From: a virus
Strand: one strand, 5' to 3'
Length of the DNA stretch: 64,000 nt
IMG/VR virus record: IMGVR_UViG_3300025131_000005
The translations under genes were made by a program, and so were the position numbers. Numbering within the stretch: the stretch's first letter is position 1; each line of letters opens with the position of its first letter. Below are positions 1 to 32,825 of this stretch, piece by piece. Under the pieces are notes generated by a model. That model saw nothing but the letters and a program-made list of their open reading frames with translations. It did not search any database and was not told where the DNA came from.

Positions 1-327
1 GAACACTATGATAATGAAATAGAAAAAATATATTTACGTGAGGACGCAATTATCCCAGGTGAAGAAATCTTTAATATTGGTGCGCCGACAGGATTGTTTT
101 CTTACAATATGGTTAATCGTTTTCGAGGGTTTTATGCAGGAAATATTGCTCTAGGAGATGCAAATAATTTAAAAAATGTTTTTAATTTTCCAGCAGTTGA
201 GGGAAGTTCCGGGTCTCCAATATTTGACGATGAGGGATTATTGATAGGTATTGTTTCAATGTTCTCAAAAGACTTTAACTATATAATCCTTTCACCAACC
301 ATACCAGAGCTGAGAAAAAGGCTATAG
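1..327 (+). CDS. Trypsin-like (S1) serine protease, 5'-truncated by window edge
   Basis: Frame 1 is open from base 1; catalytic-Ser motif EGSSGSPIFD followed by LIGIV. Confidence 0.8.
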   Translation, partial: EHYDNEIEKIYLREDAIIPGEEIFNIGAPTGLFSYNMVNRFRGFYAGNIALGDANNLKNVFNFPAVEGSSGSPIFDDEGLLIGIVSMFSKDFNYIILSPTIPELRKRL

Positions 328-787
328 ACTGAATTAGCCCTATAGGATCAAACTTATTTTTATCTTTGAGAGCTATAGCATCTTTTGCTGCTTTAAGAAA
401 ATTTGGAGTGATCGGATATTTTTCTTTTTGTACTTGATCGAGTGTTAATAATTTATATTCCGAATGCTCAAAACTTAATTTTATATTTTTTACCTTGTCG
501 GATGATAATTTAGAGTAATAATAAGTTATATCATCTTCATGACGAAATATTGTGGGATTTTTAATACTTAAACCTGTTTCTTCTTTGACTTCTCGCTTTA
601 AAGCAACAATAAGATCTTCACCATGGTGCACGTGTCCCCCTGGTAAATCTAGATTACCTTTAAATCTTTCGATATCGCTTATAAGAAATAATATTTTATC
701 GCCTACAAATAAAATAATTTTTGCAACGTATCTACTATCTTCACTTTTCTTAAGATATTTGCACCATTTCTTAATATTGTATTTCAT
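275..787 (-). CDS. Nudix hydrolase
   Basis: Nudix box PGGHVHHGEDLIVALKREVKEETG; N-terminus KKWCKYLKKSE resembles the shared leader. Confidence 0.85.
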   Translation of the reverse strand: MKYNIKKWCKYLKKSEDSRYVAKIILFVGDKILFLISDIERFKGNLDLPGGHVHHGEDLIVALKREVKEETGLSIKNPTIFRHEDDITYYYSKLSSDKVKNIKLSFEHSEYKLLTLDQVQKEKYPITPNFLKAAKDAIALKDKNKFDPIGLIQSIAFFSALVWLVKGLYS

Positions 788-790
788 ATT

Positions 791-1111
791 TCAAGTATTG
801 TCAGTTTTTGTTTTTATAACTGATTCTACAGGACTAGGTGGCGCGGCTTCTTCTGGTGCTGGAGCAAAATCAGAAACATCATCTAGAATATTTCCACATT
901 CTAAACATCTTAGAGTTTGTACCGGTGCCATCTGCTCTTGTCCATTAGGAGACATAAGAGCACTTACCCTTTTCACCTTAAAAACATTTTCAAAATAGAC
1001 GCCTTGACATTTGCCGCAATGAGCATCGGGCGCGGTCATGATTTGTTGCCTCATTTGAGCTGCAGCGGCAGCTTGTGCTACCTGTGCGTTGTTATTTTCC
1101 ATTCCGTTCAT
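791..1111 (-). CDS. Small zinc-ribbon protein
   Basis: CGKC...CLEC pair; abuts neighbouring genes. Confidence 0.6.
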   Translation of the reverse strand: MNGMENNNAQVAQAAAAAQMRQQIMTAPDAHCGKCQGVYFENVFKVKRVSALMSPNGQEQMAPVQTLRCLECGNILDDVSDFAPAPEEAAPPSPVESVIKTKTDNT

Positions 1112-1694
1112 AATAATCCTTCTCCAATTTAGTTAATGTGCTAATTGTTTTAGCAACTGATGTATGTAATATCGCAATACCTCCACTTTTTTCCCAAGCT
1201 TCGGTATAAATCTCGAAATCATCAATCAAAATACAGGGTTTTCCGTTTTTATCGGTAGCCCATTTTTCTTTTTCCCCGTCCAGTGGTAATAGTATATCAT
1301 ACTTTTCAGGATTTGGAAACAAATATTTTTGAATCCAGTACTTTTTTCCTTCTATGCACTCTTCATCCATTGGATGTGAGAGGATTTTGGGGGTTGAAAT
1401 GAATGCTAAGTGTCTCCAAAGTCTAAAAGTCCCCGGAAGAGGCTTTAAGGAAGCCCAAAATTCGTAATCATTCGATAGCAAGTTCTTTACCCAATCAATT
1501 GCAGCTTGTATGCCTCTGTTTTTGACGGGCTCAGTCCAATCTAGACGCCTTTTGAATACTTTTTTAACATTTTTTAGCATTTTTGGGTCTTTTGCGCATG
1601 GGTATATACCATTTTCAAATAAATCTACCAGTACGCCATCCATATCACAGTAAATTTCATATGGAAAGTCATTTTTTTTGGATTTTGCAATCAT
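1092..1694 (-). CDS. HAD-family 5'(3')-deoxyribonucleotidase-like protein
   Basis: HAD motif I YCDMDGVL and motif IV ILIDD; ATG at 1694 preferred to TTG at 1703 because the promoter -10 lies at 1704-1709. Confidence 0.8.
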   Translation of the reverse strand: MIAKSKKNDFPYEIYCDMDGVLVDLFENGIYPCAKDPKMLKNVKKVFKRRLDWTEPVKNRGIQAAIDWVKNLLSNDYEFWASLKPLPGTFRLWRHLAFISTPKILSHPMDEECIEGKKYWIQKYLFPNPEKYDILLPLDGEKEKWATDKNGKPCILIDDFEIYTEAWEKSGGIAILHTSVAKTISTLTKLEKDYYERNGK

Positions 1695-1703
1695 AATGAG
1701 CAA

Positions 1704-1732
1704 ATAATATCAACATTTGGCTCTTTTGTCAA
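1704..1732 (-). promoter_or_regulatory. Sigma70-type (early) promoter
   Basis: Minus strand reads TTGACA-17 nt-TATTAT, with A/T tracts upstream, directly before the nucleotidase gene. Confidence 0.75.
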
Positions 1733-1782
1733 GAAAAAAGGTGTTTTTTGCTAAAAAAAGGCTATTTTTAGTGTTTTTTAGC

Positions 1783-2340
1783 CTATTTTCGAACATTTAT
1801 GCGATCGGAGACCATTAAAATTTCGGGGTATTTATCTCCCAAAAGTGCCACAATATCGACATTTTGTTGAGAATCATCTAAAAATAACACATCATCAGCC
1901 CCTGATTTGATGCGATCTTCGATCCAATTGGCTTTTTCTTGTGGATTTGGGTCCTCTAGTCCCACAATTTTTATTTTTGAGGTATCAATACCAATACTTT
2001 TCAACCAGCCTCTGATTGCCGGTGCTGCTTTTTGTGATCTAGCAGTCAAAATAACGATTTCTCGTTCTCCTTCTGCCTCAACAGCGCCTCGTAAGCGCTT
2101 TACAACCGATTTTATCTGCACAGGGTTGATAACTTCATCAAATTGGCTAAAATCATATTCATTTTCATACGGTTTGTACTCATGATCGGCAAATTCTTCT
2201 GGAGTAAACTCTTCTGAGGTATTGTCCGGATAAACAACTACTACTTTCGAATCAGAGACAGCTAATGTATCATCAAAATCAAAAACACGAAGCTTTGATT
2301 CATTTATATACTCTCGCCAATTTTCAAATAGAAGTTTCAT
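1783..2340 (-). CDS. HAD-superfamily phosphatase with MKLLFENWREYINE leader
   Basis: RVFDFDDTL (DxDxT), ILTAR, K, FLDD motifs. Confidence 0.75.
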   Translation of the reverse strand: MKLLFENWREYINESKLRVFDFDDTLAVSDSKVVVVYPDNTSEEFTPEEFADHEYKPYENEYDFSQFDEVINPVQIKSVVKRLRGAVEAEGEREIVILTARSQKAAPAIRGWLKSIGIDTSKIKIVGLEDPNPQEKANWIEDRIKSGADDVLFLDDSQQNVDIVALLGDKYPEILMVSDRINVRK

Positions 2341-2345
2341 TCCTC
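2308..2345 (-). repeat. Leader repeat A, copy 1
   Basis: 37/38 nt identical to 2882-2919; spans GAGGA-ATG and the codons for MKLLFENWREY. Confidence 0.95.
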
Positions 2346-2543
2346 ATCTTCCGTAGTTTTAAACGTCTTACATTCACAAATAGTTCTACCATCATCAGTT
2401 CTTGCGTAGTCTAAATCGATATTTTCAGCGTAACAGAACTTGTTTTTGTTAAAAATGCAATCTACGCACAAACAAGAGCAAGTCACTTGCGGTAATTCTT
2501 CTTCAGAAATTAAATCTCGCCATTTTTCAAGTAATAGTTTCAT
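2337..2543 (-). CDS. Small Cys-rich protein (DUF1540-like) with MKLLLEKWR leader
   Basis: CSCLCVDCIFNKNKFCYAENI pattern; ATGA overlap with the next gene. Confidence 0.6.
   Translation of the reverse strand: MKLLLEKWRDLISEEELPQVTCSCLCVDCIFNKNKFCYAENIDLDYARTDDGRTICECKTFKTTEDEE
2517..2543 (-). repeat. Leader repeat B, copy 1
   Basis: 27/27 nt identical to 3151-3177 (ATGAAACTATTACTTGAAAAATGGCGA). Confidence 0.95.
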
Positions 2544-2545
2544 CT

Positions 2546-2914
2546 TTAAGCCTCCAAAGGTGTTAAATATACTGGGAATTCTTTTATTCCTAGCTTTTTA
2601 GCTGCTTCTAATCGATGGTGACCATTTAGAACAAAATAAACTGGTTCTGATATACCTGATTTCGCCGCTTTTGGCTGATCATCGATTCTGTGTGGGTTAA
2701 CTGGCGCTTGATTACAAACTTCTAGAGGCTCTAGAATTCCTTGTTGTATTTGTTGCATTTTATCTTGAACAATGTTTTCGCACTCTTGACTTGGACAATC
2801 ATGATCTTTTCCATGGCCCATTTCCTCAGAAGGAACTAATAAATTAACGTCGACATAAAAAACTTTCTTATTTTCTTTCACATACTCTCGCCAATTTTCA
2901 AATAGGAGTTTCAT
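2546..2914 (-). CDS. ParB/sulfiredoxin-like domain protein with MKLLFENWREY leader
   Basis: VLNGHHRLEAAKKLG is the ParB/Srx GHxR motif. Confidence 0.75.
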   Translation of the reverse strand: MKLLFENWREYVKENKKVFYVDVNLLVPSEEMGHGKDHDCPSQECENIVQDKMQQIQQGILEPLEVCNQAPVNPHRIDDQPKAAKSGISEPVYFVLNGHHRLEAAKKLGIKEFPVYLTPLEA

Positions 2915-2919
2915 TCCTC
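2882..2919 (-). repeat. Leader repeat A, copy 2
   Basis: 37/38 nt identical to 2308-2345. Confidence 0.95.
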
Positions 2920-3177
2920 TTCCGCCGAAGGGAATAATACATTCAACATTTCATCGATTTCGTTAAATGCTTCAAATTGTTCTGGGGGCCAATCGTCGGC
3001 GGATCCATATACTTCTTTCATACGTTCACTAATGAATTTTTCGATATCGTTTGCTATTACCCCATTTTTTATTAAAAACATTCTATGGGATTTCTTTTCC
3101 TCCGCGCTTTTCCACGGACCTCGAACAACATCCCCTTCTTTTAGGCGTTTTCGCCATTTTTCAAGTAATAGTTTCAT
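2911..3177 (-). CDS. Hypothetical protein with MKLLLEKWR leader
   Basis: Start placed at the leader ATG (3177) rather than the ORF-track 3204; ends EEE* overlapping the next ATG. Confidence 0.65.
   Translation of the reverse strand: MKLLLEKWRKRLKEGDVVRGPWKSAEEKKSHRMFLIKNGVIANDIEKFISERMKEVYGSADDWPPEQFEAFNEIDEMLNVLFPSAEEE
3151..3177 (-). repeat. Leader repeat B, copy 2
   Basis: 27/27 nt identical to 2517-2543. Confidence 0.95.
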
Positions 3178-3187
3178 TTTATATTTC

Positions 3188-4246
3188 CTATCGAGGTAAG
3201 CCACCTAATAATGTAATTGCGATTAAGCCTGGTGCCCCCGGCTTTACATAAACACCAGAAAATAACGTTTCTGTGCGCCCACCAACATAAGAAATAGCAG
3301 CATCTAAATGTTGGCTGATGGCTGGATCGTTTGCCATTTCCGGAGGCATCACCAAGAGCATTGCTCCAATTTTTGATTTACCAACAGTTGTGGGACATGG
3401 AGATCTTTTTACACAATTTTGAAGTATTTTTGCTCCAAGATCTGGAATATTGGGATCTTTAATCAGTGTCGTGCCAATAAGCATTCTCTTTTCTGCCTCC
3501 AGGCATCTTTCTAGATCTTTTGAGTCAAATGACTGAATTGAGGACTTTTCTGAAGCCAATTTAAGAGTTTGGCTGAACAACTTTGCAAAAGCAGTATTTG
3601 CTGTTGGAAGCATATTAACCAATCCTACTTTACCTCGAAGAAACTTGATTTGTCTCTCATTATCTAAGATAATATGGGGAGAATCCATAACATCATTTGC
3701 CAATACCATAGCATTTTTTGCTATAGTGCCGTTTAATAGCTCCTGAGCGTTCGGGAAGGTCATAATGTAGAATACCTTGCCTTCTGCCCCAACTGCTCTT
3801 AAATAGCGCTTAAACACGTCGTCTAGGGCAAAACATGCACTACCCGTGCCTCCACCCCCGCCTGCGAGGACAAAAAGCCAATCAACCTTACCAAGTTTTG
3901 TTCTGAGGGCATCTTCGACAACAGCGCTGTTCTGGCTGAAGGCACTTTTCCCAACTTCAACGTTTTTGGCAACTCCGTCAGCGTCTGGAATAAGAACCAT
4001 GTTTTTAGGATCAACATTTTCCGGTTGATCTTTGGGAGTTGTATTGATCAGAAGAGTTTTGTTAAAGCCGAGATCCAAAAATGCTTTGGCCAATTTGCCG
4101 CCTCCTCCACCAACACCAATAAAAGCGCAATTTAGGGCGCACTCCACAGTATTGTCTTCTAACATATCTTCATTTTTGATTTCTTCAGAATCATCGTAAT
4201 GATCTACAAAATCAAAATCATCAAATTCATTTTCATCGTTATTCAT
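3188..4246 (-). CDS. Tubulin/FtsZ-superfamily GTPase (phage tubulin, PhuZ/TubZ-like role possible)
   Basis: T1 loop FIGVGGGGGK, INT, signature-like AGGGGGTGS, TFP..E, LDNE, T7-like SFDSKD; acidic N-terminal extension; no FtsZ-type C-terminal linker. Confidence 0.9.
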   Translation of the reverse strand: MNNDENEFDDFDFVDHYDDSEEIKNEDMLEDNTVECALNCAFIGVGGGGGKLAKAFLDLGFNKTLLINTTPKDQPENVDPKNMVLIPDADGVAKNVEVGKSAFSQNSAVVEDALRTKLGKVDWLFVLAGGGGGTGSACFALDDVFKRYLRAVGAEGKVFYIMTFPNAQELLNGTIAKNAMVLANDVMDSPHIILDNERQIKFLRGKVGLVNMLPTANTAFAKLFSQTLKLASEKSSIQSFDSKDLERCLEAEKRMLIGTTLIKDPNIPDLGAKILQNCVKRSPCPTTVGKSKIGAMLLVMPPEMANDPAISQHLDAAISYVGGRTETLFSGVYVKPGAPGLIAITLLGGLPR

Positions 4247-4526
4247 CTTTATCTCCTTTTGTTGATGTATATTTTTTAAGAGGGTCGCGGGCGGTGTTTC
4301 TTACAAGCGCATCAAAATCCTTCTTTAGTTGTTCAAGATCCGGATTATACGTTTGTTTATAAACTTTTTTACGCGGATTCTTTGCTCGTTTAGTCTGCAA
4401 GACTAGTTTTTTCATTGTCGATTTATTGGGATACTCTTTTTCTTCAGCTGCTTCCTGCATGATAGCATAGGTATTCTTAATTTCTTCTTCAATAATCTCT
4501 TTCAATTTTTGTTTTGTAATCTTCAT
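4239..4526 (-). CDS. Hypothetical protein with MKITKQKLKEIIEEE leader
   Basis: ATG at 4526 overlaps the upstream stop (ATGA). Confidence 0.6.
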   Translation of the reverse strand: MKITKQKLKEIIEEEIKNTYAIMQEAAEEKEYPNKSTMKKLVLQTKRAKNPRKKVYKQTYNPDLEQLKKDFDALVRNTARDPLKKYTSTKGDKDE

Positions 4527-6772
4527 TTGAACATATTTCCCCATTTCGTAAATAATTTTAGATTTTCTTTAGATTCTGACATCAAATCGGATAATTCTTC
4601 TACATCTTTCATATCTTTTCTTATTTGAGGAACAATCACTTTTTGTATTTTGTTATTAACTAGACCTTCGAGAAGCTCGCGAGTATACTCTAAAAACTTT
4701 GGTTTGTCGAGGATTTTTATAAATCTTTCAATAGCATTTACTTCTTCTTCAGTATTTTCCCTTACTTGAATATCTAGAGCGTAGCCAAAAGTTAAATGAT
4801 CGGATATCTTATGGGGAAACGCCGGTCCGCCGCCTTTGGGCATCGATCCACCTTTATCTGTTGTTAGCCACAAAGTTACATTGTTTACAGGTACTTGGAC
4901 GCCTTCTTCTTCTGAAAGGGGGAGTTCCATTTGTTTAGTGGCTGCTTGATATACTTTTTCAAATACTCCTTGGAGGTGTTTAAGGAATTCATTTTTTATT
5001 TCAAGGTTTATATGTTTGCCGATCTGTATCATTATCTTATTATAAAATGCTTTTTCTTCGTCAGTGGGGGCGCTTTTTGATGCATCGATGATTTCTGGTG
5101 GGAGCAAGATCTGAATGGGTAGTTGCGTGCTTAACTCAACCTCTGTACCTTCTGGTGTAACCTCAAAATGATCTAGCTCTAAGTCCTCAAAGCGTTTTGA
5201 CATATCTTTGATGGTTTGCCCCACTATCAAACCTGATTCTCTGAATGCTTCTAAAATTTCTTCGTATATTGCTTCGTATTTTTCTTCTAGTGTAACATTT
5301 TCCTCAACAAAGGAACGGAACTCATCCATTGTTGATCCACCGTAAGTGTAAGTGTCGGAAGGAGTAAAGTTAGCGGACACCTCAACTGAACCTCTCCAAT
5401 CGTTAACATCAAGTTCCTCTGGATAAAAATAGTTGTTGTCTAATGCTTTCTCAATGATATCTTTCATATCATCAGTATCTGGATCTTCTACCATATCGTC
5501 AACATCAGAAAAATCAAATGATGTTGAGGAGTTAAAATAATATTTACCCTCATCATATTCGTCGACATTGATGTGAACGCGTGACCATTCATATTCATCT
5601 ATAATATTTTGGAATTCTTCTAGGGTGGGACCGGCTGGATTTTCTTCAAAGTGACCTCCAGCGTATCCCGTTATTTCGCTCAACTCTTCCGATACTTTTT
5701 CATCAAACGTTTCGATAGCGATCTGTATTTGCTGTTCTGGGCTCAAATCTTCATCGGGCTCAGCCTCAATACCCAATGCTTCAAAGGCAACTTTTACATC
5801 TCTGGGAATTTCTAAGGTGTCTTGATTGTAGAACTCAGTACGCCATGTATCAAAATGAGTTTGAAGTTGCTCCTTTCCTGTTTTAAAGTAGCTAGTCTTT
5901 TTATCGCCTTTAAGTTTTTTGCCGACATCAGCAAGACTGGAATCCATAAATCCTTTCGCCAACAGGTTCTCTTTGATTGCTTCTTCTAAACCACCGTATC
6001 CAACTTCATCATCTGCAGCATCATATATTTCTTCTGGTTCATAATCACTTCCTGGACCGTATACCAAAGCCATTTTTTTATTATCGCTATCTTGCGGGAG
6101 ATGCTTGAAGAGGGCCATATAAAAAGCTTTTCCTTCGCCTGAGTACTGGTTAAAGTAATTTTGTGAGGTTGTAGACGAGATACACCACTTCGTGCCTCTG
6201 CCGTAATAACAAGAGCCTTCTGGGCTATAGGGGCGTACCATCATAACATCATCAGTATCCATTACTACTTCGCTGGTTTCTTTTGCGCCCTTTTCTAATT
6301 TGCGCATCGTTTCTCTTTCATTAAATTCTTTTTCTGCATTATATACTTGATGCTCGAAGTCGCCCAAATCTTTAAACTTATCAATATTTTTATCAATCAA
6401 GTTCATAGAAGCAAATTTGTGATACTTGGGTAAGGTGCTTGCTATTCTTCTCGTATAGTGTCTTATATTATCTTCTATATCGCGGACATCTACCTCTCTA
6501 TCATACTCTTTAGCCTCGCCCTCTGCATTTTTTATATACTGCATCACTCTGGAGTTGAGGCGACGAGCAGCCCATCCTAAATATTTTTGATTGCCCGAGG
6601 GATCAGCTTCTATGATAGTATCAAGAAGTTTTTCCAATTCTTTTGCAACCTGCTCGTATTTAACATTTTTTACAACGGCTTTTTTAGCGTCTTCTTTACG
6701 ACCTTCAATGAGAAGCACTTCCTCATCTTCGGATAAAAACTTGCGCCATCTTTCAAATAATAGCTTACTCAT
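4523..6772 (-). CDS. Large acidic hypothetical protein with MSKLLFERWRKFLSE leader
   Basis: 749-codon ORF from ATG 6772; DPSGNQKY and SCYYGRGTKWCIS motifs; function not recognised. Confidence 0.7.
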   Translation of the reverse strand: MSKLLFERWRKFLSEDEEVLLIEGRKEDAKKAVVKNVKYEQVAKELEKLLDTIIEADPSGNQKYLGWAARRLNSRVMQYIKNAEGEAKEYDREVDVRDIEDNIRHYTRRIASTLPKYHKFASMNLIDKNIDKFKDLGDFEHQVYNAEKEFNERETMRKLEKGAKETSEVVMDTDDVMMVRPYSPEGSCYYGRGTKWCISSTTSQNYFNQYSGEGKAFYMALFKHLPQDSDNKKMALVYGPGSDYEPEEIYDAADDEVGYGGLEEAIKENLLAKGFMDSSLADVGKKLKGDKKTSYFKTGKEQLQTHFDTWRTEFYNQDTLEIPRDVKVAFEALGIEAEPDEDLSPEQQIQIAIETFDEKVSEELSEITGYAGGHFEENPAGPTLEEFQNIIDEYEWSRVHINVDEYDEGKYYFNSSTSFDFSDVDDMVEDPDTDDMKDIIEKALDNNYFYPEELDVNDWRGSVEVSANFTPSDTYTYGGSTMDEFRSFVEENVTLEEKYEAIYEEILEAFRESGLIVGQTIKDMSKRFEDLELDHFEVTPEGTEVELSTQLPIQILLPPEIIDASKSAPTDEEKAFYNKIMIQIGKHINLEIKNEFLKHLQGVFEKVYQAATKQMELPLSEEEGVQVPVNNVTLWLTTDKGGSMPKGGGPAFPHKISDHLTFGYALDIQVRENTEEEVNAIERFIKILDKPKFLEYTRELLEGLVNNKIQKVIVPQIRKDMKDVEELSDLMSESKENLKLFTKWGNMFK

Positions 6773-6808
6773 ACAAAACTCCAATTGGAATGAAACGATT
6801 AATCATCA

Positions 6809-6816
6809 TAAATAGT
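6809..6816 (-). promoter_or_regulatory. Candidate late-promoter motif ACTATTTA
   Basis: Intergenic, about 37 nt before ATG 6772; the same octamer precedes the gp25-like gene at 59590. Confidence 0.45.
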
Positions 6817-6821
6817 AAGAT

Positions 6822-7469
6822 TTAAAGAGAAAATACCCTTATCATGCCTTTTGTTACATCAATCATTCTAGTGTGAGCCGGCGTCCATCCGTGATATTTA
6901 GGACCTTCGTGGTCTGGGTCTCCATGTCCTTGGCGAGTTTGTGCACGAATAGCTAAATGAACCAGTTCGTGGATAAATGCTGTCTCTGATATTTCTTCCT
7001 TTTCTCCCTTATAAACCCATATTGTTGTCGGACCCATAACACGACCAATAATATTGTGGTTTGTAAATTTCTTACCGTCGAGAAAGAAACCTCGCTTCGA
7101 AACTTTAACCTTTTCGCCCCATTCGATCATAACTTTACGGAGAAGTTCTTTTACAGAATAATCATAGTCACCAAAATTCTCCACCCAATTATAATAAAAT
7201 AATGTCATAGCAAGAGACACTCTATGATTAGGATATATATCACATCGGGTTACAATCTGTGTGGCATATTTAAAATAAGGTATCATTATCATTTGAGGAA
7301 AGGGCTTACTAGAATCACACTGTGATAAAATCTTTCGCACCTTTTCAAAGGTAGCATTAGTAGAGGGGGGCATATTAACTCCATGACCCGAACAAGTTAG
7401 AGTGATTAACGATAAAAACAACACTATCAACACCTTTCTCACCTTGTTTCTTCTCCCACCTATTTGCAA
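6822..7469 (-). CDS. Putative lipoprotein with zincin HExxH motif
   Basis: RKVLIVLFLSLITLTC signal/lipobox-like segment; FIHELVH followed by GHGDPDHE. Confidence 0.6.
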   Translation of the reverse strand: MQIGGRRNKVRKVLIVLFLSLITLTCSGHGVNMPPSTNATFEKVRKILSQCDSSKPFPQMIMIPYFKYATQIVTRCDIYPNHRVSLAMTLFYYNWVENFGDYDYSVKELLRKVMIEWGEKVKVSKRGFFLDGKKFTNHNIIGRVMGPTTIWVYKGEKEEISETAFIHELVHLAIRAQTRQGHGDPDHEGPKYHGWTPAHTRMIDVTKGMIRVFSL

Positions 7470-9475
7470 ATCTCATTAAATATTTCCATTAAATTGTTAT
7501 ACATATCAGTCGGATTGCTAGTGAGCATATAATTCTTTCCATTTCCTGCATCCGATAAATCGGTCCATGATTGTATTGTATTTTTTGAAAACGTGTATAG
7601 TTTAAGTTGGGGGGTGCCGCCAATTGCGGTGATAACATCTTGCTCAGTTAACTGAGGCACTAAGTAACTCTGAGGGGGTTCATCACTAAAAACGATTACA
7701 ATACGATCAGCTCCTGCGCGCCAACTAACTTTAAAATCTTGTAAAGGAGGTATTGATTCTTTAACTCCCCATGGTTGAGTACTGTATACTCCGCTTTCTC
7801 CTTTCCATACCATATCACTAATATTATAGTTAATAGTGGCGCTAATATTACGAAGCGATAAGTATACAGCGTCTAGAATCATCTCATAAGAAGTTTGCAT
7901 CGCTGCCCAATTGGTACCTAACTGTCCCATAGAAGTAAGGAATTCAGTAAACCCGACCAGATTTTGGTGCAATTCTAAACGTTCATCTTGAGATCCGAAT
8001 GTTTCGAAAACATCCAATGGTCCACGAATTAAAGCCCAATTAATAACTTCTTCATCGCTAAAATTAGCAGCAAATTGATTTAACGCTATCATAACGGCGT
8101 CGATTTCATCAGCCATTGAACCGGACCAATCTACAATGAAAAGAATATCTGTATCGGGTATTTCTTCACCCCAATCCGTTTCACCGTCACAATCATCGTC
8201 TAGACCGTTGCAAAGTTCTTCTTGAGGAGTTACTTCTTCTTTACAATAATAAGGAATAAAAGCGCCTTCTTCAGAATCATTACCCCAAATACCTTTATCA
8301 CAATACATTTCTCCAGGTTTGCATTCTCCGGCGTATAAGGTCCCTTCGGGTCCTGTATAACATCCAGAAAACAAATCTTCATCAATTAGTTGATTGCAGT
8401 TATCATCAAAATTATTACACTCTTCCTTTTCTAGTTCCATTCCTATGAGCGGATCACATACAGTTTGAGGATTCGGGGGGAAATGATGACAAATAGCATA
8501 GCAGGGAGTTGTTATAATTGTTTTGCATTCAGGATCTAAACATTCGCAAGTTTTATATCCTTGACCACATAGGAGAGGCGATTCTTGACATGGAAATAGA
8601 GATCCTACATCTTGTATAGTACAAATACATTCAAGACCTTCGTCGACTTGTCCATTGCAGTTATTATCTAGTCCATCGCAAATTTCATCTAATTCTGGTG
8701 GGGCCGTACAAGATATCCAATTACCACTTTCACATATTTCTACCCCATTTCCACAAGCAGTAGCACATGGTTGAAAAAGCTCTTCATCTGTTAATCCATC
8801 GCAATCATCATCATAAGCGTTGCACTCTTCTGAGGGGATGGTTCCGCATTCATTACAATCATTTAATTGTTCTTCATCTGTAAATCCATCGCAGTCATCA
8901 TCAAGTTCGTTACAGGTTTCTTCTGGGATTTCTTCACAATCATTACAAGCATTTAAAACACCTTCATCTATTTCACCATCGCAGTCATTGTCAATATAAT
9001 CGCAAGTTTCTTCTACACAATCTGTAATACAATCTGTATATTGAATTTTTCCTTTATTACAAACTTTTTCTACAACGCCAGCGTATCCATCATCAGTTGT
9101 GCATTCTAAAAAGTCAATATGATATTGTGATGGGTCACATTCCATATATTCTTCACATTCACCTTCGGAATGCAATGTGGGGGGATTATCACACATGTTT
9201 AAACAAATTTCTTTTTGCCATATAGCATCTAGAGGTGGACAAAAATACCATTTGCACTCGACACATTCTTCAAGAGGAGGAGAAATATCTTCTTCTACCC
9301 ATGGAGTCCAACGTACTGCATCATCAGAAAAAATATCTTCTTGTTCGGTGTAGGTATTTTCGTCAGAAAAAAAAGATCCATCGCTGCCGGAGGTATTAGA
9401 ACAATTAACAGCCGATGCGCCGATAAAAATTATCAACAGTGTCAGTCGCGTGATTGTTTTAATATTGTTTTTCAT
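7460..9475 (-). CDS. Putative lipoprotein with Cys/Asp 'CDGxDNDCDGxxDE' repeats and C-terminal vWA domain
   Basis: Signal ending AVNC; six repeats such as CDYIDNDCDGEIDEG and CDGLDNNCNGQVDEG; MIDAS motif IVDWSGSM; VFSDE. Confidence 0.8.
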   Translation of the reverse strand: MKNNIKTITRLTLLIIFIGASAVNCSNTSGSDGSFFSDENTYTEQEDIFSDDAVRWTPWVEEDISPPLEECVECKWYFCPPLDAIWQKEICLNMCDNPPTLHSEGECEEYMECDPSQYHIDFLECTTDDGYAGVVEKVCNKGKIQYTDCITDCVEETCDYIDNDCDGEIDEGVLNACNDCEEIPEETCNELDDDCDGFTDEEQLNDCNECGTIPSEECNAYDDDCDGLTDEELFQPCATACGNGVEICESGNWISCTAPPELDEICDGLDNNCNGQVDEGLECICTIQDVGSLFPCQESPLLCGQGYKTCECLDPECKTIITTPCYAICHHFPPNPQTVCDPLIGMELEKEECNNFDDNCNQLIDEDLFSGCYTGPEGTLYAGECKPGEMYCDKGIWGNDSEEGAFIPYYCKEEVTPQEELCNGLDDDCDGETDWGEEIPDTDILFIVDWSGSMADEIDAVMIALNQFAANFSDEEVINWALIRGPLDVFETFGSQDERLELHQNLVGFTEFLTSMGQLGTNWAAMQTSYEMILDAVYLSLRNISATINYNISDMVWKGESGVYSTQPWGVKESIPPLQDFKVSWRAGADRIVIVFSDEPPQSYLVPQLTEQDVITAIGGTPQLKLYTFSKNTIQSWTDLSDAGNGKNYMLTSNPTDMYNNLMEIFNEICK

Positions 9476-9505
9476 TCTTGTTTATTAAAGAAAGTTCCCA
9501 CAATA

Positions 9506-9515
9506 TAACTAGTTA
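9506..9515. promoter_or_regulatory. Palindromic TAACTAGTTA between divergent transcription units
   Basis: Perfect palindrome reading ACTAGTTA on both strands, at the minus/plus strand switch. Confidence 0.4.
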
Positions 9516-9553
9516 AAAACCTACACTATATATATTATAATATTTAACTGTCA

Positions 9554-9844
9554 TTGGAGTACAAAACTACTTATTATATTATGAGCACAAAAAGATGTGA
9601 TTTGTCAAGGAAAAACATGTGTTACTTGACTTTTATTCTCTCAATCGTATTTTTTATTACGTCGATGGTGTTTTTTGTTTCTGTTGGTGGTGTTGCCTCG
9701 AAAGAAAAACTCATTAATCATGATAAAATTCATCATGCGCAGCAACGAAAAATAATTGATAAACTCAAGCTTCTTGAAAATAAAGTTCATAAAAATAAAA
9801 ATAAATTAAATAGATTAAAGAAAAGAAGAAAGGATAATAATTGA
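9554..9844 (+). CDS. Small membrane protein (one TM helix plus basic coiled coil)
   Basis: YLTFILSIVFFITSMVFFVSVG hydrophobic segment. Confidence 0.55.
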   Translation: MEYKTTYYIMSTKRCDLSRKNMCYLTFILSIVFFITSMVFFVSVGGVASKEKLINHDKIHHAQQRKIIDKLKLLENKVHKNKNKLNRLKKRRKDNN

Positions 9845-10089
9845 TGTCGACCGGTGAAGCCAAAATATCTCTTAGCAGTTTAAGAGATTATATTTTATTA
9901 GGCGTTGCTATAGTGAGCGCCATTGCTGGGATTATTTTTTGGGTGCAGGGCTCTAATGATGAAAAAATATCCAGATTGGAACACGATATTGAATTAGTCC
10001 AATTGGATATCGATAAAATAAGAGAAAATAATACCGAAATACTAAGAGTTATAGGACGTCTTGAAGGCAAGCTGGATAATTTAAAATGA
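9841..10089 (+). CDS. Small membrane protein (TM plus coiled coil; holin-like architecture possible)
   Basis: YILLGVAIVSAIAGIIFWV, then heptad LEHDIELVQLDIDKI; TGATG overlap. Confidence 0.6.
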   Translation: MMSTGEAKISLSSLRDYILLGVAIVSAIAGIIFWVQGSNDEKISRLEHDIELVQLDIDKIRENNTEILRVIGRLEGKLDNLK

Positions 10090-11072
10090 TTAAAAATCTT
10101 TGGGAAGAATATGTCCGAGAAAACGAGATTGATTTACAATCTTTAATACCAAAGGATAATTTACAACCAAGTTTTTGGAATAATAAATTAGAACTTAAAA
10201 AATCTATAGCTGATAAATTAATGGAAATTGCTAAAGATTTTCTTGAATCTATTAATTTAGATACGGAAATCGAACTTAAAGATGTAACCATAACAGGCTC
10301 AATAGCTAGCTATAATTGGTCAAAATATTCTGATGTAGATCTTCATTTAATAATTGATTATAAAGATGTAGATGAAAATGAAGATTTGGTAAAAGAATAT
10401 TTTTCTGGAAAGATATTTGTGTGGAATACTAAACATGAAATCATGATGAACGATCATGAAGTCGAAGTATACGTACAAAATGAATCAGAGACGCATGTTT
10501 CTGGCGGCGTCTATTCAGTGATGCATAATAAATGGTTACAAAAACCAAAGAAGGAAGATGTTATAATAAATCTTGCAGTGGTAGAAAAAAAAGTACTTGG
10601 ATTAATCGATCATATCGAAAGATCTTTTGATTTATTTGAGCAAAAAAAATATCATCCCGCAATGGTTACTGCCAAAAGTATAAAAGAAAAAATTAAACTC
10701 TTAAGACGCTCTGGGTTATCTAAAGAAGGCATATATTCAATTGAAAATCTAGCTTTTAAGTTACTTCGAAGATCAGGGCATTTAAAACTTATTAATGATA
10801 TTATCACTAAGTCATATGATAGAGTTATGTCTTTACATAAAGATTTGCGAGGATCTTTGAAAGTTTTTATTGGAAGTACTGAGTCTGAGGCTAATGAATC
10901 TTATGATGCTCTTTTAGAAGAAGAAGGATATCAACGTCGGGTAAAACAGAGACATTATCTTATGAAAAAGAAATTAATTGGTCTTGGAGGAGAGAAAAAT
11001 ACCTCCCCTTATGTAAAGAAACCTAGTTATAAGAGATCAAAATCTGCTCCTGCTGGATTGGGGGGAAGTTAA
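10086..11072 (+). CDS. Pol-beta-superfamily nucleotidyltransferase
   Basis: TGSIASYNWSKYSDVDLHL (GS...DxD) plus EVEVYV; leader-like MIKNLWEEYVRE. Confidence 0.75.
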   Translation: MIKNLWEEYVRENEIDLQSLIPKDNLQPSFWNNKLELKKSIADKLMEIAKDFLESINLDTEIELKDVTITGSIASYNWSKYSDVDLHLIIDYKDVDENEDLVKEYFSGKIFVWNTKHEIMMNDHEVEVYVQNESETHVSGGVYSVMHNKWLQKPKKEDVIINLAVVEKKVLGLIDHIERSFDLFEQKKYHPAMVTAKSIKEKIKLLRRSGLSKEGIYSIENLAFKLLRRSGHLKLINDIITKSYDRVMSLHKDLRGSLKVFIGSTESEANESYDALLEEEGYQRRVKQRHYLMKKKLIGLGGEKNTSPYVKKPSYKRSKSAPAGLGGS

Positions 11073-13960
11073 TGAAATTAAAAGTTATATTAAAAGAAAA
11101 AAAGAACTTAAACGAAGTTGATACGGCCAAAGTAGCAGAATTAAGAAGAAGGATGAATAAGCCATCAGCTATTGAAAGAGAATTAGAAGTAGCATTTAAA
11201 AAAGCAGAAAAAAGTCCGCAAGAATTCTTTAATGTAATGCAACAAGTGATACAAAGAACAAAAAAGGATTTACAAAAATTAGCCAGTATATTTCCCACAA
11301 TGCCGCGTTTTTTAGAAACTATTAATAAAATTACAATTGGGGCAGCCGAAGACGCAGAAGATATAGAAGATTTTGGTGATGATATAGAAGACGCGCTTAG
11401 AAGTGATGAAAAAGAATCCGGAGAAGAAGAAGACGCGTTCGATAATATTGAATTAGAGGAAGCAGAAAAAGATATAGATTATGAAAAACTTTTCCAATTT
11501 GTAAAATCTCGGGAAGACGACGAAGAGAAAAGCAAAAAGTTGGGAAAAGTATTAGATACTCTTAATTTTTCCAGTATTGCCAAATTAATAGGAAATACAC
11601 CTTTTGAAGATCTTATTAAAAGTTATCAAAAGGATTTAGCAGAAGGATTAAAAGCAATTGCTAAAAAAGGCACAGATCCTGTAAATTATTTTATTAATAA
11701 TCCACAATTAGCCATGGATCTTCGAGGTGTCTATCAAATTATTAATCTATCTTTTGAATTTTCAAAAGTGATATTAAAAGTTCGCTCTAGAATGGCTGGT
11801 TTATATAAAAAAGGACGCGAAGATCCCGAATCTATAATTAATGCAATTGAAAAAAATCCAGATATTTTATTAAATAATTTTAAAGAAGAATTTAAGCATT
11901 TGAAAATATCTCCCATGTTAGCTAAGGGACAACAAACGTTTAATAACTTTTTTATAGGTCAAATATTCCAAGCTAGCGACGTTGCAACGGGTGGTGGATA
12001 TGCTAAGCAAGTAGCTGCTGTAGGAAGAGCTGGTAGTCGGTTAGATCGTCTTAAAAAAGCGGGAGCAGTTCGAGAAGAGGTATTAGGAGAACAAGATGCA
12101 GATGTCGATGCTGCAATGAAGGACCTACAATCAGATCCTCTTACACAAACGTTTGATGAATATGAAAAACAGGCTAAGGCCGAACTTAAATCTGCAGCAT
12201 CGAAAGAAAAAATAGATGAATTAACTGAATTAGCTAATAAGATTGTGACTGCTTTCGCTTCAAAACATAGGATGAGAGATGCACAGCATCGAGATTTTAA
12301 AGTAAAATTTATAAATTTAATTAATAATAATTTTGATAAAGCTGCTGGACAGTTAGAACGTATAATGGATTTCTTTAAAGAAGATATTGATAATATACTG
12401 GATGGTGCGATCGAGCCTCAAATTAAACGATGGATAAAATTAAGGCAAAGAGTCAAAAAAGCAAATATATCTCCGGAAAGGGCTGCAGCCTATATTGAGG
12501 AACTTAATAATACGATTAAATATTTAAATAAATTAAGAAAAGACTACGGTTTAAAACATTTGGATACTATTAATAAAAATCCTGCTAACTATGCTGAATT
12601 TCTAGAAGATGTTGAAGCTGCATTATCTAAAGAATTTCCTAATATAGAAAAACAATTAGGCGCAAAATTCAAAAGCATTAAACAGGGAAATGGTGCACCA
12701 GGCGAAGATAAAAAAGAAGATGAAAAAGAAAAAGAACCTGGGGATCCCAATTCTCTAAAGAATTTAAGTACTGGAAAAATTAACGTTGCGCTTAACCAAC
12801 TTAGAAATAAAGGACTAGGCGCAGATCAAATAACTAAACAAATAAATAATATAGCAAATGATATTAGTAAAAATGCAGGCCCCCAAAGAGATAATTTTAT
12901 AAATAAAGATTTACCAGTTATTAATAAAATTAAAGATGAAATAAGTAAAATACTTAAGGGAGATTTTACTAATTTAGTTAAAGAATCTAATAACTTAGTT
13001 TATATACATCCTATAACTTATGATTTACTTAAAAGATTAAGTATTAAATTTAAATCTAAAATAGATTATAATATTAAAGCTTTAAATGAAAATACATTAA
13101 ATATTAATAAATATAATTTGATTGTATCACAAATTTCTAATTTAGTAAAGAGCTATTCTGAAAAAGATAAAAAGAAACTTTTAAACTTTAATGAAAACAA
13201 ATACTTACAAGTCAACTCAAAATTAAGTCCGGAAGCGATTCGAGTAATAATCGATGCGTTTCATAGCTCCAAAGACACAATAGTACCATTAAAAGAAGAA
13301 TGTGTCATTAAAAATCACTCAGATAGAGACATGTCTCATTTAGAAGATATATTAACTCAGTTTTATCCATATGCCAAAAAAAAACTTGACTTTGAAGAAC
13401 CTGTAAATATTAATTTAGTTTCAGATGCAGAAAATTCTAAAGATCCATTTGGAAAAACTGCTTATTATAATCCAGAAGCAATGGAAATTTCTATATTTGT
13501 AGATGAAAGACATCCCAAAGATATGTTAAGATCAATTGCACACGAATTGGTGCATCATGCACAAAATTGTCGAGGCGAATTTGATAACGTCGGTAGTACA
13601 GAACCGGGTTATGCTCAAAAAGATTCTCATTTGAGAAATTTGGAAGGAGAAGCTTATTTATTAGGAAATGGATTTTTGGTTAGAGATTACGAGGATTTAC
13701 TTAAACTTAATTCAAAGGAGAAAAAAGAAGTGAAGAAATTAACTAAAGAAAGATTAGAAGCTGTCTTAACAAGAGTAGTTTCAGAAATTGTTGCAGAAGA
13801 AGGAGAAACAACTGTTTACAACAGAGATGAGGATGAAGAGTCCGCTTGTGTTGAAGAAGCAGAAGCTTCTACTCTTACTGAAGATATGGTTGAGGAATTA
13901 TTCAGAGTTCGTAAAGATGCTCTTATAAATGAAGCATTGAAAAAGAAATGGTGTAAGTAA
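11072..13960 (+). CDS. Large mosaic protein with C-terminal zincin-like HExxH domain; probable virion head-associated protein
   Basis: RHPKDMLRSIAHELVHHAQ; several L-x-E motifs; very AT-rich internal block near 12960-13200. Confidence 0.65.
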   Translation: MKLKVILKEKKNLNEVDTAKVAELRRRMNKPSAIERELEVAFKKAEKSPQEFFNVMQQVIQRTKKDLQKLASIFPTMPRFLETINKITIGAAEDAEDIEDFGDDIEDALRSDEKESGEEEDAFDNIELEEAEKDIDYEKLFQFVKSREDDEEKSKKLGKVLDTLNFSSIAKLIGNTPFEDLIKSYQKDLAEGLKAIAKKGTDPVNYFINNPQLAMDLRGVYQIINLSFEFSKVILKVRSRMAGLYKKGREDPESIINAIEKNPDILLNNFKEEFKHLKISPMLAKGQQTFNNFFIGQIFQASDVATGGGYAKQVAAVGRAGSRLDRLKKAGAVREEVLGEQDADVDAAMKDLQSDPLTQTFDEYEKQAKAELKSAASKEKIDELTELANKIVTAFASKHRMRDAQHRDFKVKFINLINNNFDKAAGQLERIMDFFKEDIDNILDGAIEPQIKRWIKLRQRVKKANISPERAAAYIEELNNTIKYLNKLRKDYGLKHLDTINKNPANYAEFLEDVEAALSKEFPNIEKQLGAKFKSIKQGNGAPGEDKKEDEKEKEPGDPNSLKNLSTGKINVALNQLRNKGLGADQITKQINNIANDISKNAGPQRDNFINKDLPVINKIKDEISKILKGDFTNLVKESNNLVYIHPITYDLLKRLSIKFKSKIDYNIKALNENTLNINKYNLIVSQISNLVKSYSEKDKKKLLNFNENKYLQVNSKLSPEAIRVIIDAFHSSKDTIVPLKEECVIKNHSDRDMSHLEDILTQFYPYAKKKLDFEEPVNINLVSDAENSKDPFGKTAYYNPEAMEISIFVDERHPKDMLRSIAHELVHHAQNCRGEFDNVGSTEPGYAQKDSHLRNLEGEAYLLGNGFLVRDYEDLLKLNSKEKKEVKKLTKERLEAVLTRVVSEIVAEEGETTVYNRDEDEESACVEEAEASTLTEDMVEELFRVRKDALINEALKKKWCK

Positions 13961-20990: not shown

Positions 20991-22304
20991 TTGATGAAAA
21001 AAACATACGTCTTAGATACCAACGTCCTTCTAACAGAAGCTAACTCTATATTTTCATTTAAAAATAACGATATAATAATTCCTTTAAAAGTTTTAGAAGA
21101 AATCGATAAACACAAGAAAAGACAGGATGGCGTTGGACAAAACGCTCGTAAATCGATACGTATTCTAGATGGACTCCGTACAAAAGGAAATTTACATAAT
21201 GGTATTCGTTTAGAGAAACGAAAAGGAATTTTATATGTTCGGATGTACGATCCATCTTTAATGCCAATCGGTTTAGACGCGTCAGATGCAGATAACCAAA
21301 TTATCACTACAGCAATCACTGAAAAACAAAAAAATCCGAAACGTAAAGTATCTGTTGTTTCGCGTGATATTAATATGCGTATTAAATGTGACGCATTACA
21401 AATATTAGCAGAAGATTATGATAGAGGTAAAATTGTTTCTACTATCGATGAACTTTACGACGGTTTTACCGCTCATTTAGTAGATACTCAAATAATAGAT
21501 AGATTTTATGAAGGTGAAGAGATAAGCGCCTCGATGATTGAGGGAAGATTTAGTCCAAATGAGTTTGTTATGCTGATTTCAAATTCTAATTCAAAACATA
21601 CCGCATTGGCCAAGTATGGAGGCGCTGTTGATAAATTAATAGCTATTAATGAATATAAAAATAACGGTATCTGGGGTTTACGTTCTAGAAATAAAGAACA
21701 AATGTTTGCTTTAGATCTTCTTATGGATGAAAGTATTCCTATTATTACTATTACAGGAAAAGCCGGATGTGGTAAGACTTTGCTAACATTAGCTGCGGGT
21801 TTAAATCAAGTACTGGATCAAGATAAATATAAAAAACTTGTTGTTTCGCGCCCCGTACAGCCAATTGGCAGAGATCTTGGATATTTGCCTGGTACTCTAG
21901 AAGAAAAAATGCATCCATGGCTCAAACCAATTGGAGATAATTTAGAATTTTTAATGGGTGATAAAAAAGATACAATGGAACTTTTAATAGAGCAGGGAAC
22001 AATTGAAGTTGAAGCTTTAACATATATTCGAGGCAGATCGATATCGAATGCTTTTGTAATTATTGATGAAGCTCAGAATCTTTCAGTTCACGAACTTAAA
22101 ACTATTGTTACAAGAATTGGTGAAAATTCTAAAATTGTTCTAACGGGAGATATTGAACAAATAGATAACACATATTTAGATTCAACATCTAATGGGCTTT
22201 CCTATGCTATTGAAAAGTTTAAAACCGAAGAAATAGCGGGTCATATAACACTTAAAAAGGGTGAAAGGTCTGAGGTTGCAACATTGGCGTCAAAAATACT
22301 TTAA
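20991..22304 (+). CDS. phoH: PIN-domain plus PhoH-family ATPase
   Basis: YVLDTNVL PIN start; GKAGCGKT Walker A; GYLPG; YIRGRS; IIDEAQN; GDIEQID. Confidence 0.92.
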   Translation: MMKKTYVLDTNVLLTEANSIFSFKNNDIIIPLKVLEEIDKHKKRQDGVGQNARKSIRILDGLRTKGNLHNGIRLEKRKGILYVRMYDPSLMPIGLDASDADNQIITTAITEKQKNPKRKVSVVSRDINMRIKCDALQILAEDYDRGKIVSTIDELYDGFTAHLVDTQIIDRFYEGEEISASMIEGRFSPNEFVMLISNSNSKHTALAKYGGAVDKLIAINEYKNNGIWGLRSRNKEQMFALDLLMDESIPIITITGKAGCGKTLLTLAAGLNQVLDQDKYKKLVVSRPVQPIGRDLGYLPGTLEEKMHPWLKPIGDNLEFLMGDKKDTMELLIEQGTIEVEALTYIRGRSISNAFVIIDEAQNLSVHELKTIVTRIGENSKIVLTGDIEQIDNTYLDSTSNGLSYAIEKFKTEEIAGHITLKKGERSEVATLASKIL

Positions 22305-30860: not shown

Positions 30861-30862
30861 AA
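30659..30862 (+). repeat. 204-bp perfect direct repeat, copy 1 (3' end of GT8 gene plus RBS)
   Basis: Identical by eye to 31914-32117 (offset 1255). Confidence 0.95.
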
Positions 30863-30864
30863 AG

Positions 30865-31806: not shown

Positions 31807-31807
31807 A

Positions 31808-31987
31808 ATGGCTGTTTACGATTGCTTTCCTTTTTTCAACGAAAATGATTTATTAGAACTAAGGTTAAATCAACATTGGAATTACGTAGACAAATTTATT
31901 ATCACTGAAGCCGGTGGGACAAACACTGGGAAAGTTGGGAAAGAATTGAACTTAAAGATGATAAATTGTGGCTCGATGGAAAACTGA
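31808..31987 (+). pseudogene. Truncated GT17-like paralog b fused out of frame to the duplicated GT8 segment
   Basis: 36 codons MAVYDCFPFFNENDLLELRLNQHWNYVDKFIITEAG run into repeat copy 2 and stop at 31985-31987. Confidence 0.85.
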
Positions 31988-32117
31988 TAAAGATGTTACA
32001 TTATGCCGGGGGGAATACGCCCGATAAATTTAATCTTACGAGGCATTTTTCTGATGAAGTCACAGAGCATATTAAAAAGCTTTGTAATATACCAAAGAAA
32101 TTTAAAGGAGAATAAAA
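31914..32117 (+). repeat. 204-bp perfect direct repeat, copy 2
   Basis: Identical by eye to 30659-30862. Confidence 0.95.
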
Positions 32118-32818: not shown

Positions 32819-32825
32819 GTGAATA

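Follow-up and report, generated by a model that had tools for sequence, protein, structure and literature searches.

Why should viral proteins that have nothing else in common begin with the same fourteen residues? The question is raised by a 64,000-nucleotide stretch of viral DNA (IMG/VR record IMGVR_UViG_3300025131_000005; hereafter the window), in which a leader peptide of the consensus MKLL[FL]E[NKR]WR..[LIV].E heads five genes of the minus strand, starting at 2340, 2543, 2914, 3177 and 6772. An original prediction, made from the letters of this DNA, had proposed that the leader directs an enzyme payload into the virus head for delivery at infection. Our analysis suggests that this peptide, here called the ENWR leader, is probably a longer version of the capsid targeting sequence (CTS) of phage T4, put to much heavier use, and would be cut by a prohead protease of the gp21 family after its terminal glutamate, Glu14. 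The tag is strictly N-terminal, virus-specific and modular, and its conservation ends at this glutamate.

A common leader on unrelated genes

Six-frame scans of the window with a regular expression, a position-specific scoring matrix and a hidden Markov model (HMM) find the pattern KLL[FLIVM]E[KRN]WR exactly five times, and every match is the N-terminus of a minus-strand open reading frame (ORF). The HMM, built from 206 unique leaders taken from outside the window, scores the five genes at 20-34 bits (independent E-values 4e-10 to 1e-5); the runner-up, a spurious ORF, reaches 7 bits. This bears out the claim that unrelated proteins share a leader of about 14 residues. In a de novo comparison of all ORF N-termini, the ENWR leader is moreover the sole case in the window of unrelated proteins with a common start, the other clusters being true paralogues. 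At the DNA level, the five copies have the codons of conserved residues in common and differ at synonymous sites and in their immediate flanks.

The highest-scoring copy (MKLLFENWREYINE at 2299-2340, 34 bits) belongs to a HAD-type phosphatase of 185 residues (1783..2340), 15 homologues of which carry the leader as well. The top Foldseek matches of this protein are the HAD phosphatases MDP-1 and T4 Pnkp (phosphatase domain). In its AlphaFold model, with a mean predicted local distance difference test score (pLDDT) of 86, residues 2-13 form a helix with low confidence (pLDDT below 50 for residues 1-12), and the confident core (pLDDT 76-95) opens with strand 16-20, which bears the DxD motif. The adjoining genes encode a Cys-rich protein of 68 residues (2337..2543; leader MKLLLEKWRDLISE at 2502-2543, 20 bits), which has no Pfam or PHROG match and whose BLAST likeness to other leader-bearing proteins is limited to the leader; a ParB/Srx-like protein of 122 residues (2546..2914; leader MKLLFENWREYVKE at 2873-2914, 30 bits) with a weak ParB-like PHROG match; and a protein of 88 residues without assigned function (2911..3177; leader MKLLLEKWRKRLKE at 3136-3177, 24 bits), whose start is an internal ATG of the ORF 2911-3204. 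The fifth, a protein of 749 residues beginning with MSKLL (4523..6772; leader MSKLLFERWRKFLSE at 6728-6772, 20 bits), matches PHROG families of unknown function and has a sub-threshold PcfJ-like lead in a protein atlas. Its BLAST homologues L007:5728-7785 and L034:8684-10279 have the leader too; a separate search of viral contigs found no relatives of it.

Two weaker leaders had also been named in the original prediction, one on a Nudix hydrolase of 170 residues (275..787, minus strand; Pfam NUDIX, 4e-14; MKYNIKKWCKYLKKSE at 740-787), the other, truncated, on a nucleotidyltransferase-like protein of 328 residues (10086..11072, plus strand; MIKNLWEEYVRE at 10086-10121). Neither is detectable by the leader HMM, which gives the Nudix start a non-significant score of about -2 bits and does not match the nucleotidyltransferase start, but both align with full-leader homologues. 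The Nudix start MKYNIKKWCKYLKK aligns from residue 1 with MKLLFENWRRYLKE of the leader-bearing Nudix protein L067:11721-12236 (BLAST, global alignment), and the leader retains M1, K2, W8, Y11, L12 and K13. The nucleotidyltransferase start aligns from residue 6 with MKLLFENWKKYITE of a full-leader homologue, with W-x-x-Y-[VI]-x-E kept (V in the window copy). Because of this residue-for-residue alignment, both starts are best read as decayed leaders. A third gene, for an NT5C-type 5'-nucleotidase of 203 residues (1092..1703, minus strand; PHROG 5'-3' deoxyribonucleotidase, 1e-17), is without leader and has five homologues with an ENWR leader, the homology starting at residues 15-20. Thus, intact, decaying and lost versions of the tag lie side by side in the window.

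Anatomy of the leader

In our searches, positions 1-9 of the leader were fixed by the pattern and positions 10-14 were free. At these unforced positions, the listed viral leaders have Tyr or Phe at 11 in 92%, Leu, Ile or Val at 12 in 89% and Glu at 14 in 80% of cases, with 10 and 13 variable. Each position carries less information once the glutamate is passed (2.25 bits at 14, 0.46 at 15, about 0.2 thereafter), and the same is seen with one representative per family of the attached proteins, or cargo. A [LIVM]-x-E motif with Glu at 14 is present in 76-79% of leaders, compared with 1.7% at any fixed position of the protein bodies; 22 families are without it, and eight of these have the motif shifted to 13-18 (background 9%). 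The leaders of the window end in INE, ISE, VKE, LKE and LSE. An invariant L4-x-E6 provides a second potential cleavage site.

That the recognizable domain begins right after the glutamate, as had been claimed, is seen in two of the window's proteins: the homology of the ParB-like cargo runs from residue 15, its residues 15-121 matching positions 130-236 of a longer protein with leader at 73% identity, and the first core strand of the HAD phosphatase is the strand at 16-20. The leader peptide is amphipathic, with charged residues throughout and a maximal Kyte-Doolittle value of -0.33 over nine residues. For want of a hydrophobic core, a Sec or Tat signal peptide was rejected.

Cargo and modularity

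At least 195 unique leader proteins fall into at least 90 clusters that show no mutual likeness once the leader is removed, and beyond residue 16 the mean column identity across cargo is 5%. Pfam matches among the cargo include NUDIX, protein kinase, 2H phosphodiesterase, DUF192, PGDYG and zeta-toxin/AAA_33 kinase domains, further RNase T and RNase H-like exonucleases, nucleotidyltransferase, GNAT and a papain-like toxin domain; the majority of the families have no Pfam match. For the window itself, the domain labels of the original prediction stand with differing firmness: Nudix is firm, HAD rests on the fold search, and ParB-like and nucleotidyltransferase are weak and gain support through homologues, the nucleotidyltransferase-like protein sharing 41% identity with L089:3066-3857, a protein with leader that scores above the Pfam NTP_transf_2 threshold. 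The leader or a close variant is present in each of the 66 homologues of the ParB-like cargo in the database. Taken with the leaderless NT5C protein, comparison of homologues indicates that the tag is modular, being gained and lost on homologous cargo.

Distribution of the leader

The back-translated nine-codon pattern occurs in at least 120 stretches of a viral contig collection, often in two to five copies within a few kilobases. Hits should fall almost only at N-termini if the original prediction was right, and they do: all five in the window, 247 of 261 peptide matches in viral loci, which directly follow Met among the matches listed, and all nine in G001, with none internal. G001 is one of five complete leader-bearing viral genomes (G001-G005, loci L121-L125; 186-204 kb); the complete genomes carry between one and nine leaders, always on the head-gene strand. 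A reversed control pattern gave no matches.

In 596 Gb of bacterial and archaeal genomes, the same pattern was found in 18 stretches, about four being expected by chance on our own estimate, and the full leader was present in only five of them, all on short contigs of metagenome-assembled genomes. These contigs are assigned to taxa as unrelated as a Woesearchaeota archaeon, Isosphaeraceae and a gammaproteobacterium, and therefore mis-binned viral DNA is indicated. The leader is thus essentially absent from cellular genomes, the very opposite of the mainly cellular motif that would have spoken against the original prediction. A literature search on the motif strings returned spurious matches only, and no paper describing the leader was found.

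A second leader class

Between the 749-residue cargo and a tubulin-like gene, the window encodes a protein of 95 residues (4239..4526, minus strand) with a different leader, MKITKQKLKEIIEE at 4485-4526, which follows the regular expression MK[IL]TK..L..II.E. The class, written in full as MK[IL]TKSQLKQIIKE, is found at 42 unique N-termini: the one in the window and 41 others, in the flanks of related leader loci. This second class is likewise 14 residues long and has in common with the ENWR leader M1, K2, hydrophobic residues at 3, 8, 11 and 12, a basic residue at 9 and Glu14. The cargo of its 40 full-length proteins belongs to 35 unrelated clusters, and in 35 of these proteins another [LIVM]-x-E follows within residues 16-26. 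Two cargo domains are found under both leader classes. By its sequence, the class-2 tag appears to do the same as the ENWR tag, for smaller proteins.

Lineage and head protease

Which viruses use the leader? The window is AT-rich (about 35% G+C), with a block of minus-strand genes (275-9475) facing a long plus-strand block. It has genes for PhoH and a T4-type baseplate wedge subunit, together with a large block for sugar modification. With the baseplate proteins of the five complete relatives, that of the window shares 46-49% identity, compared with only about 30% for those of Microcystis phage Mel-JY01 and Flavobacterium phage immuto, the nearest isolates. The leader users are an uncultured lineage of marine T4-like myoviruses with genomes of roughly 185-205 kb; the window's ParB-like protein is on record within a contig of 183,977 bases, in line with the genome sizes of the relatives.

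This lineage has a matching protease. A Peptidase_S77 prohead protease (T4 gp21) is present in all five complete relatives, as it is in both more distant isolates, and a Gp23-type capsid protein in the five. These proteases have invariant His85, Ser140 and an Asp (T4 numbering). Phylogenetic bracketing predicts such a protease for the genome of the window as well.

The lineage's own head proteins also carry the type of site that ends the leader. The capsid propeptide, ALLSKWERTGLLEGL, aligns with that of T4 gp23, ELLNKWKPLLEGEGL, and its last residues, ELLRE, immediately precede the conserved core. The gene that lies directly upstream of that for the capsid protein codes for a candidate scaffold protein, acidic and 392 residues long, which begins with a segment ending in SLRE/A (the slash marking the junction after Glu) and has 17 [LIV]-x-E sites. 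The protease starts M.K.LLRE[YF][YF], and a small protein encoded after it, a candidate core protein, has 9 [LIV]-x-E sites where 2.7 are expected. Since capsid protein, scaffold candidate and protease all carry L-R-E, the site type of the leader recurs in the head proteins. The scaffold and core assignments are candidates from position, composition and site density; a PHROG search of the neighbours of the protease and capsid genes gave no matches. The core of the class-2 leader, KSQLKQIIKE, recalls by eye, with no statistic attached, KSDLKQLIKP at the N-terminus of the small site-rich protein.

Three further features of this head region may be recorded. Just downstream of the protease and the small site-rich protein, G001-G005 encode a conserved, very basic protein of about 75-80 residues (39% Lys+Arg in G001), which looks by eye like ribosomal protein S21. 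In G001 only, a protein of 356 residues next to the protease (G001:123980-125050, L132:3980-5050) has an internal partial leader-like motif, ATWRTFLNE, at residues 16-24. A gene with a weak ENWR-like leader, MKLLLEHWNRYLQE (G001:122477), is inserted just upstream of the protease.

The two isolates are without ENWR leader (best HMM score about 3 bits). They hold small sets of proteins with other common N-termini, in immuto (MW353176.1) those of the ORFs starting at 111631/25470 and 118588/1803, in Mel-JY01 (PP395634.1) those at 60276/60923/62056. The immuto N-termini, MKKQILSEQF.RMQ.LAGIITE and MENFDLKKFLVEN, end in I-T-E or L-V-E. These are possible minor leader systems in culturable phages.

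Proposed function and its alternatives

How could such a tag act? In the mechanism that we propose, the amphipathic leader helix would bind the scaffolding core of the assembling prohead, so that any protein fused to it would be enclosed. The gp21-family prohead protease would then cut after the terminal [LIV]-x-Glu, at Glu14, and perhaps a second time, after the internal L-x-Glu6. Released in this way, the enzyme would remain in the head with the DNA and enter the next host at infection. From core binding and cleavage to packaging, injection and a role against host defences, we infer each of these steps from the sequences. The sequence-level predictions of the capsid-targeting idea that were tested all held (N-terminal position, unrelated cargo, viral origin, T4-like genomes with a gp21-family protease, an L/I-x-E end), and the tag is structurally and evolutionarily detachable.

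Several observations nevertheless weigh against this interpretation. The cargo is mostly acidic (median isoelectric point 5.1), unlike the basic IPII and IPIII of T4. Fourteen of the 90 cargo families (about 16%) are without [LIVM]-x-E near position 14, and about ten homologues of the ParB-like cargo read ENWREYQEGP, without the position-14 site. The residue after the presumptive cut (P1') is mostly Glu or Asp, compared with Ala, Ser or Leu in the T4 sites read. The head module of the window's own genome lies outside the window, and its protease gene is not seen there. The leader HMM gives no significant score to the T4 CTS, the capsid propeptide MARLLENQAKELLRE or the N-termini of T4 gp21 and the lineage protease; the likeness of all four to the leader lies at the level of pattern, and that of the last three, though suggestive, is not used as evidence. 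The regions before leader genes show no enrichment of the late promoter TATAAATA, which is not enriched in G001 either and does not stand before the head genes there. A tblastn search of sequenced phages with the 749-residue and HAD cargo gave no match, and no cultured member of the lineage was found. Finally, a position-specific codon bias, described below, indicates that something acts at the DNA level too.

Could the tag instead dock its cargo to some other shared partner, or control the cargo, without capsid loading? It might be a degron that times turnover, might mark proteins for a chaperone or an assembly factory, or might inhibit the enzymes as a propeptide until a protease removes it in the infected cell. 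An amphipathic helix that is not docked on the cargo in the AlphaFold model would suit such a role, the acidic and enzyme-rich cargo fits cytoplasmic functions too, and the families without cleavage motif would pose no difficulty. We nonetheless regard this explanation as unlikely, for it leaves two things unaccounted for: the stop of conservation at a Glu with [LIV] at P3, which is both the rule of the lineage's head protease and the motif of its own capsid, scaffold and protease propeptides, and the likeness of the class-2 leader to the N-terminus of the small site-rich protein beside the protease.

A second alternative places the primary function in the DNA, with the roughly 40 bp of leader DNA serving as a homology cassette for the shuffling of cargo genes by recombination, within phage genomes and from one to another, and the peptide as a passenger. 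The codon use of the leader departs sharply from that of the gene bodies, even across unrelated cargo families: Leu3 is CTC in 48% of leaders and 9% in the body, Leu4 is CTA in 58% and 13%, Leu5 is CTT in 93% and 26%, and Arg9 is CGA in 43% and 16%. Identical 23-mers recur within and between genomes, and the gain and loss of the leader on homologous cargo is what such a cassette would produce; T4-like phages are known to have shuffling cassettes (PMC2839356, PMC4122927). Against a mere passenger, however, stand conservative peptide substitutions (Y/F, L/I/V, L/F/M) alongside variable synonymous sites, and the constraint on 11, 12 and 14 with 10 and 13 free; a passenger would not keep or relocate a cleavage-type motif. 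As the primary function we thus hold it improbable; a cassette role probably helps the tag to spread and is not its purpose.

The codon bias, confined in this argument to the first nine codons, could also point to an RNA element at the translation start, either a hairpin that hides the ribosome-binding site or the operator of a translational repressor; CTC-CTA gives CUCCU, which could pair with the Shine-Dalgarno sequence. The folding analysis points the wrong way, however: the stability of the real initiation regions (-6.69 kcal/mol) is slightly below that of synonymous recodings (-7.21 kcal/mol, p=0.01), and the coding part pairs with the Shine-Dalgarno zone to the same extent as in controls (p=0.32). 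With a pattern of amino-acid conservation that speaks for selection on the peptide, this explanation is very improbable. We read the codon signal as an open initiation region and/or the spread of the leader as a recombination cassette, atop selection at the peptide level.

That the leader is a signal for secretion or the membrane, or simply opens a single conserved domain, as the N-terminal position and the MK followed by leucines might suggest, can be practically dismissed in view of the missing hydrophobic core, a transmembrane-like stretch in only 4 of the 90 cargo families, the unrelatedness of the 90 clusters and the separate low-confidence helix of the leader in the model.

Implications

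Our analysis adds three features to the capsid-targeting interpretation: a second 14-residue leader class, a codon signature at the DNA level, and the gain and loss of the leader on homologous cargo. In a broader scenario, possible if somewhat doubtful, an abundant and uncultured lineage of marine T4-like phages would use two interchangeable 14-residue tags (ENWR and KSQLKQII) to load a large and rapidly shuffled enzyme repertoire into the capsid for co-injection with the DNA, and the DNA of the tag would double as a recombination handle by which cargo genes move from phage to phage. If so, the repertoire would comprise kinases, Nudix and HAD phosphatases, 2H phosphodiesterases, exonucleases, nucleotidyltransferases and toxin-like domains, and would amount to a virion-borne delivery of effectors comparable in breadth to the effector sets of bacterial secretion systems.

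If the tag loads heads, it provides a simple sequence rule that lists the injected proteins of uncultured ocean phages, in at least 90 families, most of them of unknown function. The principle of capsid targeting, which in T4 serves a few small anti-restriction proteins, would then have grown elsewhere into a large modular effector system, and direct tests would become possible of how marine phages take over their hosts early in infection and counter their defences. The leader would also be a natural portable packaging tag, with a choice of two versions, by which phage particles could deliver proteins; its gain, loss and swapping on homologous cargo lend this portability indirect support only.

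Neighbouring genes in the window

Among the leader genes sits a gene for a tubulin/FtsZ-like protein of 352 residues (3188-4246, minus strand), with GGGGGK and GGGGGTGS motifs and a Pfam Tubulin match of 1e-5, under the cut-off. Its orthologue in G001 (111992-113032, 66% identity) likewise lies between leader genes. A tubulin-linked targeting role of the leader, or one in import into a phage nucleus, is unlikely, as the tubulin-like gene has an orthologue in only one of the five complete leader-bearing relatives.

At the edge of the window, which cuts the gene, lies the C-terminal part of a trypsin-like serine peptidase (1-327, plus strand; GSSGSP motif, Pfam Trypsin_2, 1.6e-5). The minus-strand block also encodes a protein of 671 residues (7460-9475) that starts with a hydrophobic stretch like that of a signal and contains many Cys-rich repeats of the MopE type (Pfam Cu-binding_MopE, 3e-12), followed by one of 215 residues (6822-7469) whose N-terminus is hydrophobic too. 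On the plus strand, two adjacent ORFs of exactly 962 residues each (11072-13960 and 13972-16860) have no Pfam or PHROG match, and paralogy of the two was ruled out (BLASTP E=0.56). PhoH (20991-22304) lies near the long block of sugar and cell-surface-type modification genes (23986-44503, plus strand), which holds two glycosyltransferases, a cupin or cysteine-dioxygenase-like protein, two nucleotide-sugar epimerases, a methyltransferase, a radical SAM protein and an aminotransferase. A local duplication is seen at 30748-33755 (plus strand), where the first 36 residues are identical in the ORFs starting at 30748 and 32003; three paralogues (30865, 31808, 32826) begin M[TA]VYD..PF..ENDL.ELRLNQHW. 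Just upstream of the baseplate wedge gene (60012-61817) lies a single ORF of 3131 residues (50138-59533, plus strand).

Comparison with known systems

The closest known counterpart of the leader is found in T4 itself. There, the first ten residues of IPIII are enough for loading into the head, and gp21 cuts C-terminal to Glu at the motif L/I-X-E (PMC9026906). Within the ten-residue CTS, residues 4 and 7 mainly target, and 8 and 10 direct processing (PMC9026906, PMC5694885; see also PMC3012670); Asp at 10 stops cutting and not loading (PMC9026906). The T4 record (NC_000866) confirms the comparator of the original prediction: ipII and ipIII begin with MKTYQEFIAE/A, ipI has ITE/A, gp23 FLTE/A, gp24 MAKINELLRE/S and gp22 MLKEQLIAE/A. 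The end of the lineage's capsid propeptide, ELLRE, is that of T4 gp24. At the pattern level, and not used as evidence, the N-terminus of T4 gp21 (L190:3449-4087) reads QLLIETW, with a proposed LIE-9 site, and recalls the leader core KLLLENW.

Like the CTS of IPI, IPII and IPIII and the propeptide of Alt, the leader is a short N-terminal peptide on unrelated proteins of a T4-type phage. Both start with MK, have hydrophobic or aromatic positions and end in [LI]-x-Glu, both co-occur with a gp21-family protease, and the leader genes, too, sit in variable regions. Y/F11, [LIV]12 and E14 of the leader correspond to F7, I8 and E10 of MKTYQEFIAE. Homology to this short and divergent peptide is not significant, so that the likeness is one of pattern only (MK start, aromatic-[LI]-x-E end). 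The class-2 likeness to the small site-rich protein echoes, by eye, the way in which the T4 CTS resembles the N-terminus of gp22. The differences are just as clear: the leader has 14 residues rather than 10 and is far more conserved; it occurs on one to nine genes per genome and on at least 90 cargo families, many of them recognizable enzymes, whereas T4 has three small proteins plus Alt; its cargo is mostly acidic; and it has a second, parallel class.

In the giant phages SPN3US, phiKZ and 201phi2-1, many head-internal proteins are cut after Glu at A/S-x-E by S80 prohead proteases related to gp21, and paralogues can have identical N-termini that are thought to act in targeting (PMC5694885). 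Processing after Glu by a gp21-related protease, predicted for the leader, is the common element with these ejection and inner-body propeptides. In contrast, the giant-phage propeptides are mostly longer than 100 residues, have A/S at P3 and include no universal tag on unrelated enzymes, whereas the leader has 14 residues and L/I/V at P3.

A third likeness lies at the DNA level. The promoter-stem-loop (PeSL) cassettes of T4-like phages are short conserved pieces of DNA that flank variable genes and have been proposed to further modular exchange, and the leader DNA resembles them in its cassette-like codon use. PeSLs are intergenic and regulatory, whereas the leader element is coding, selected as a peptide and free of a hairpin.

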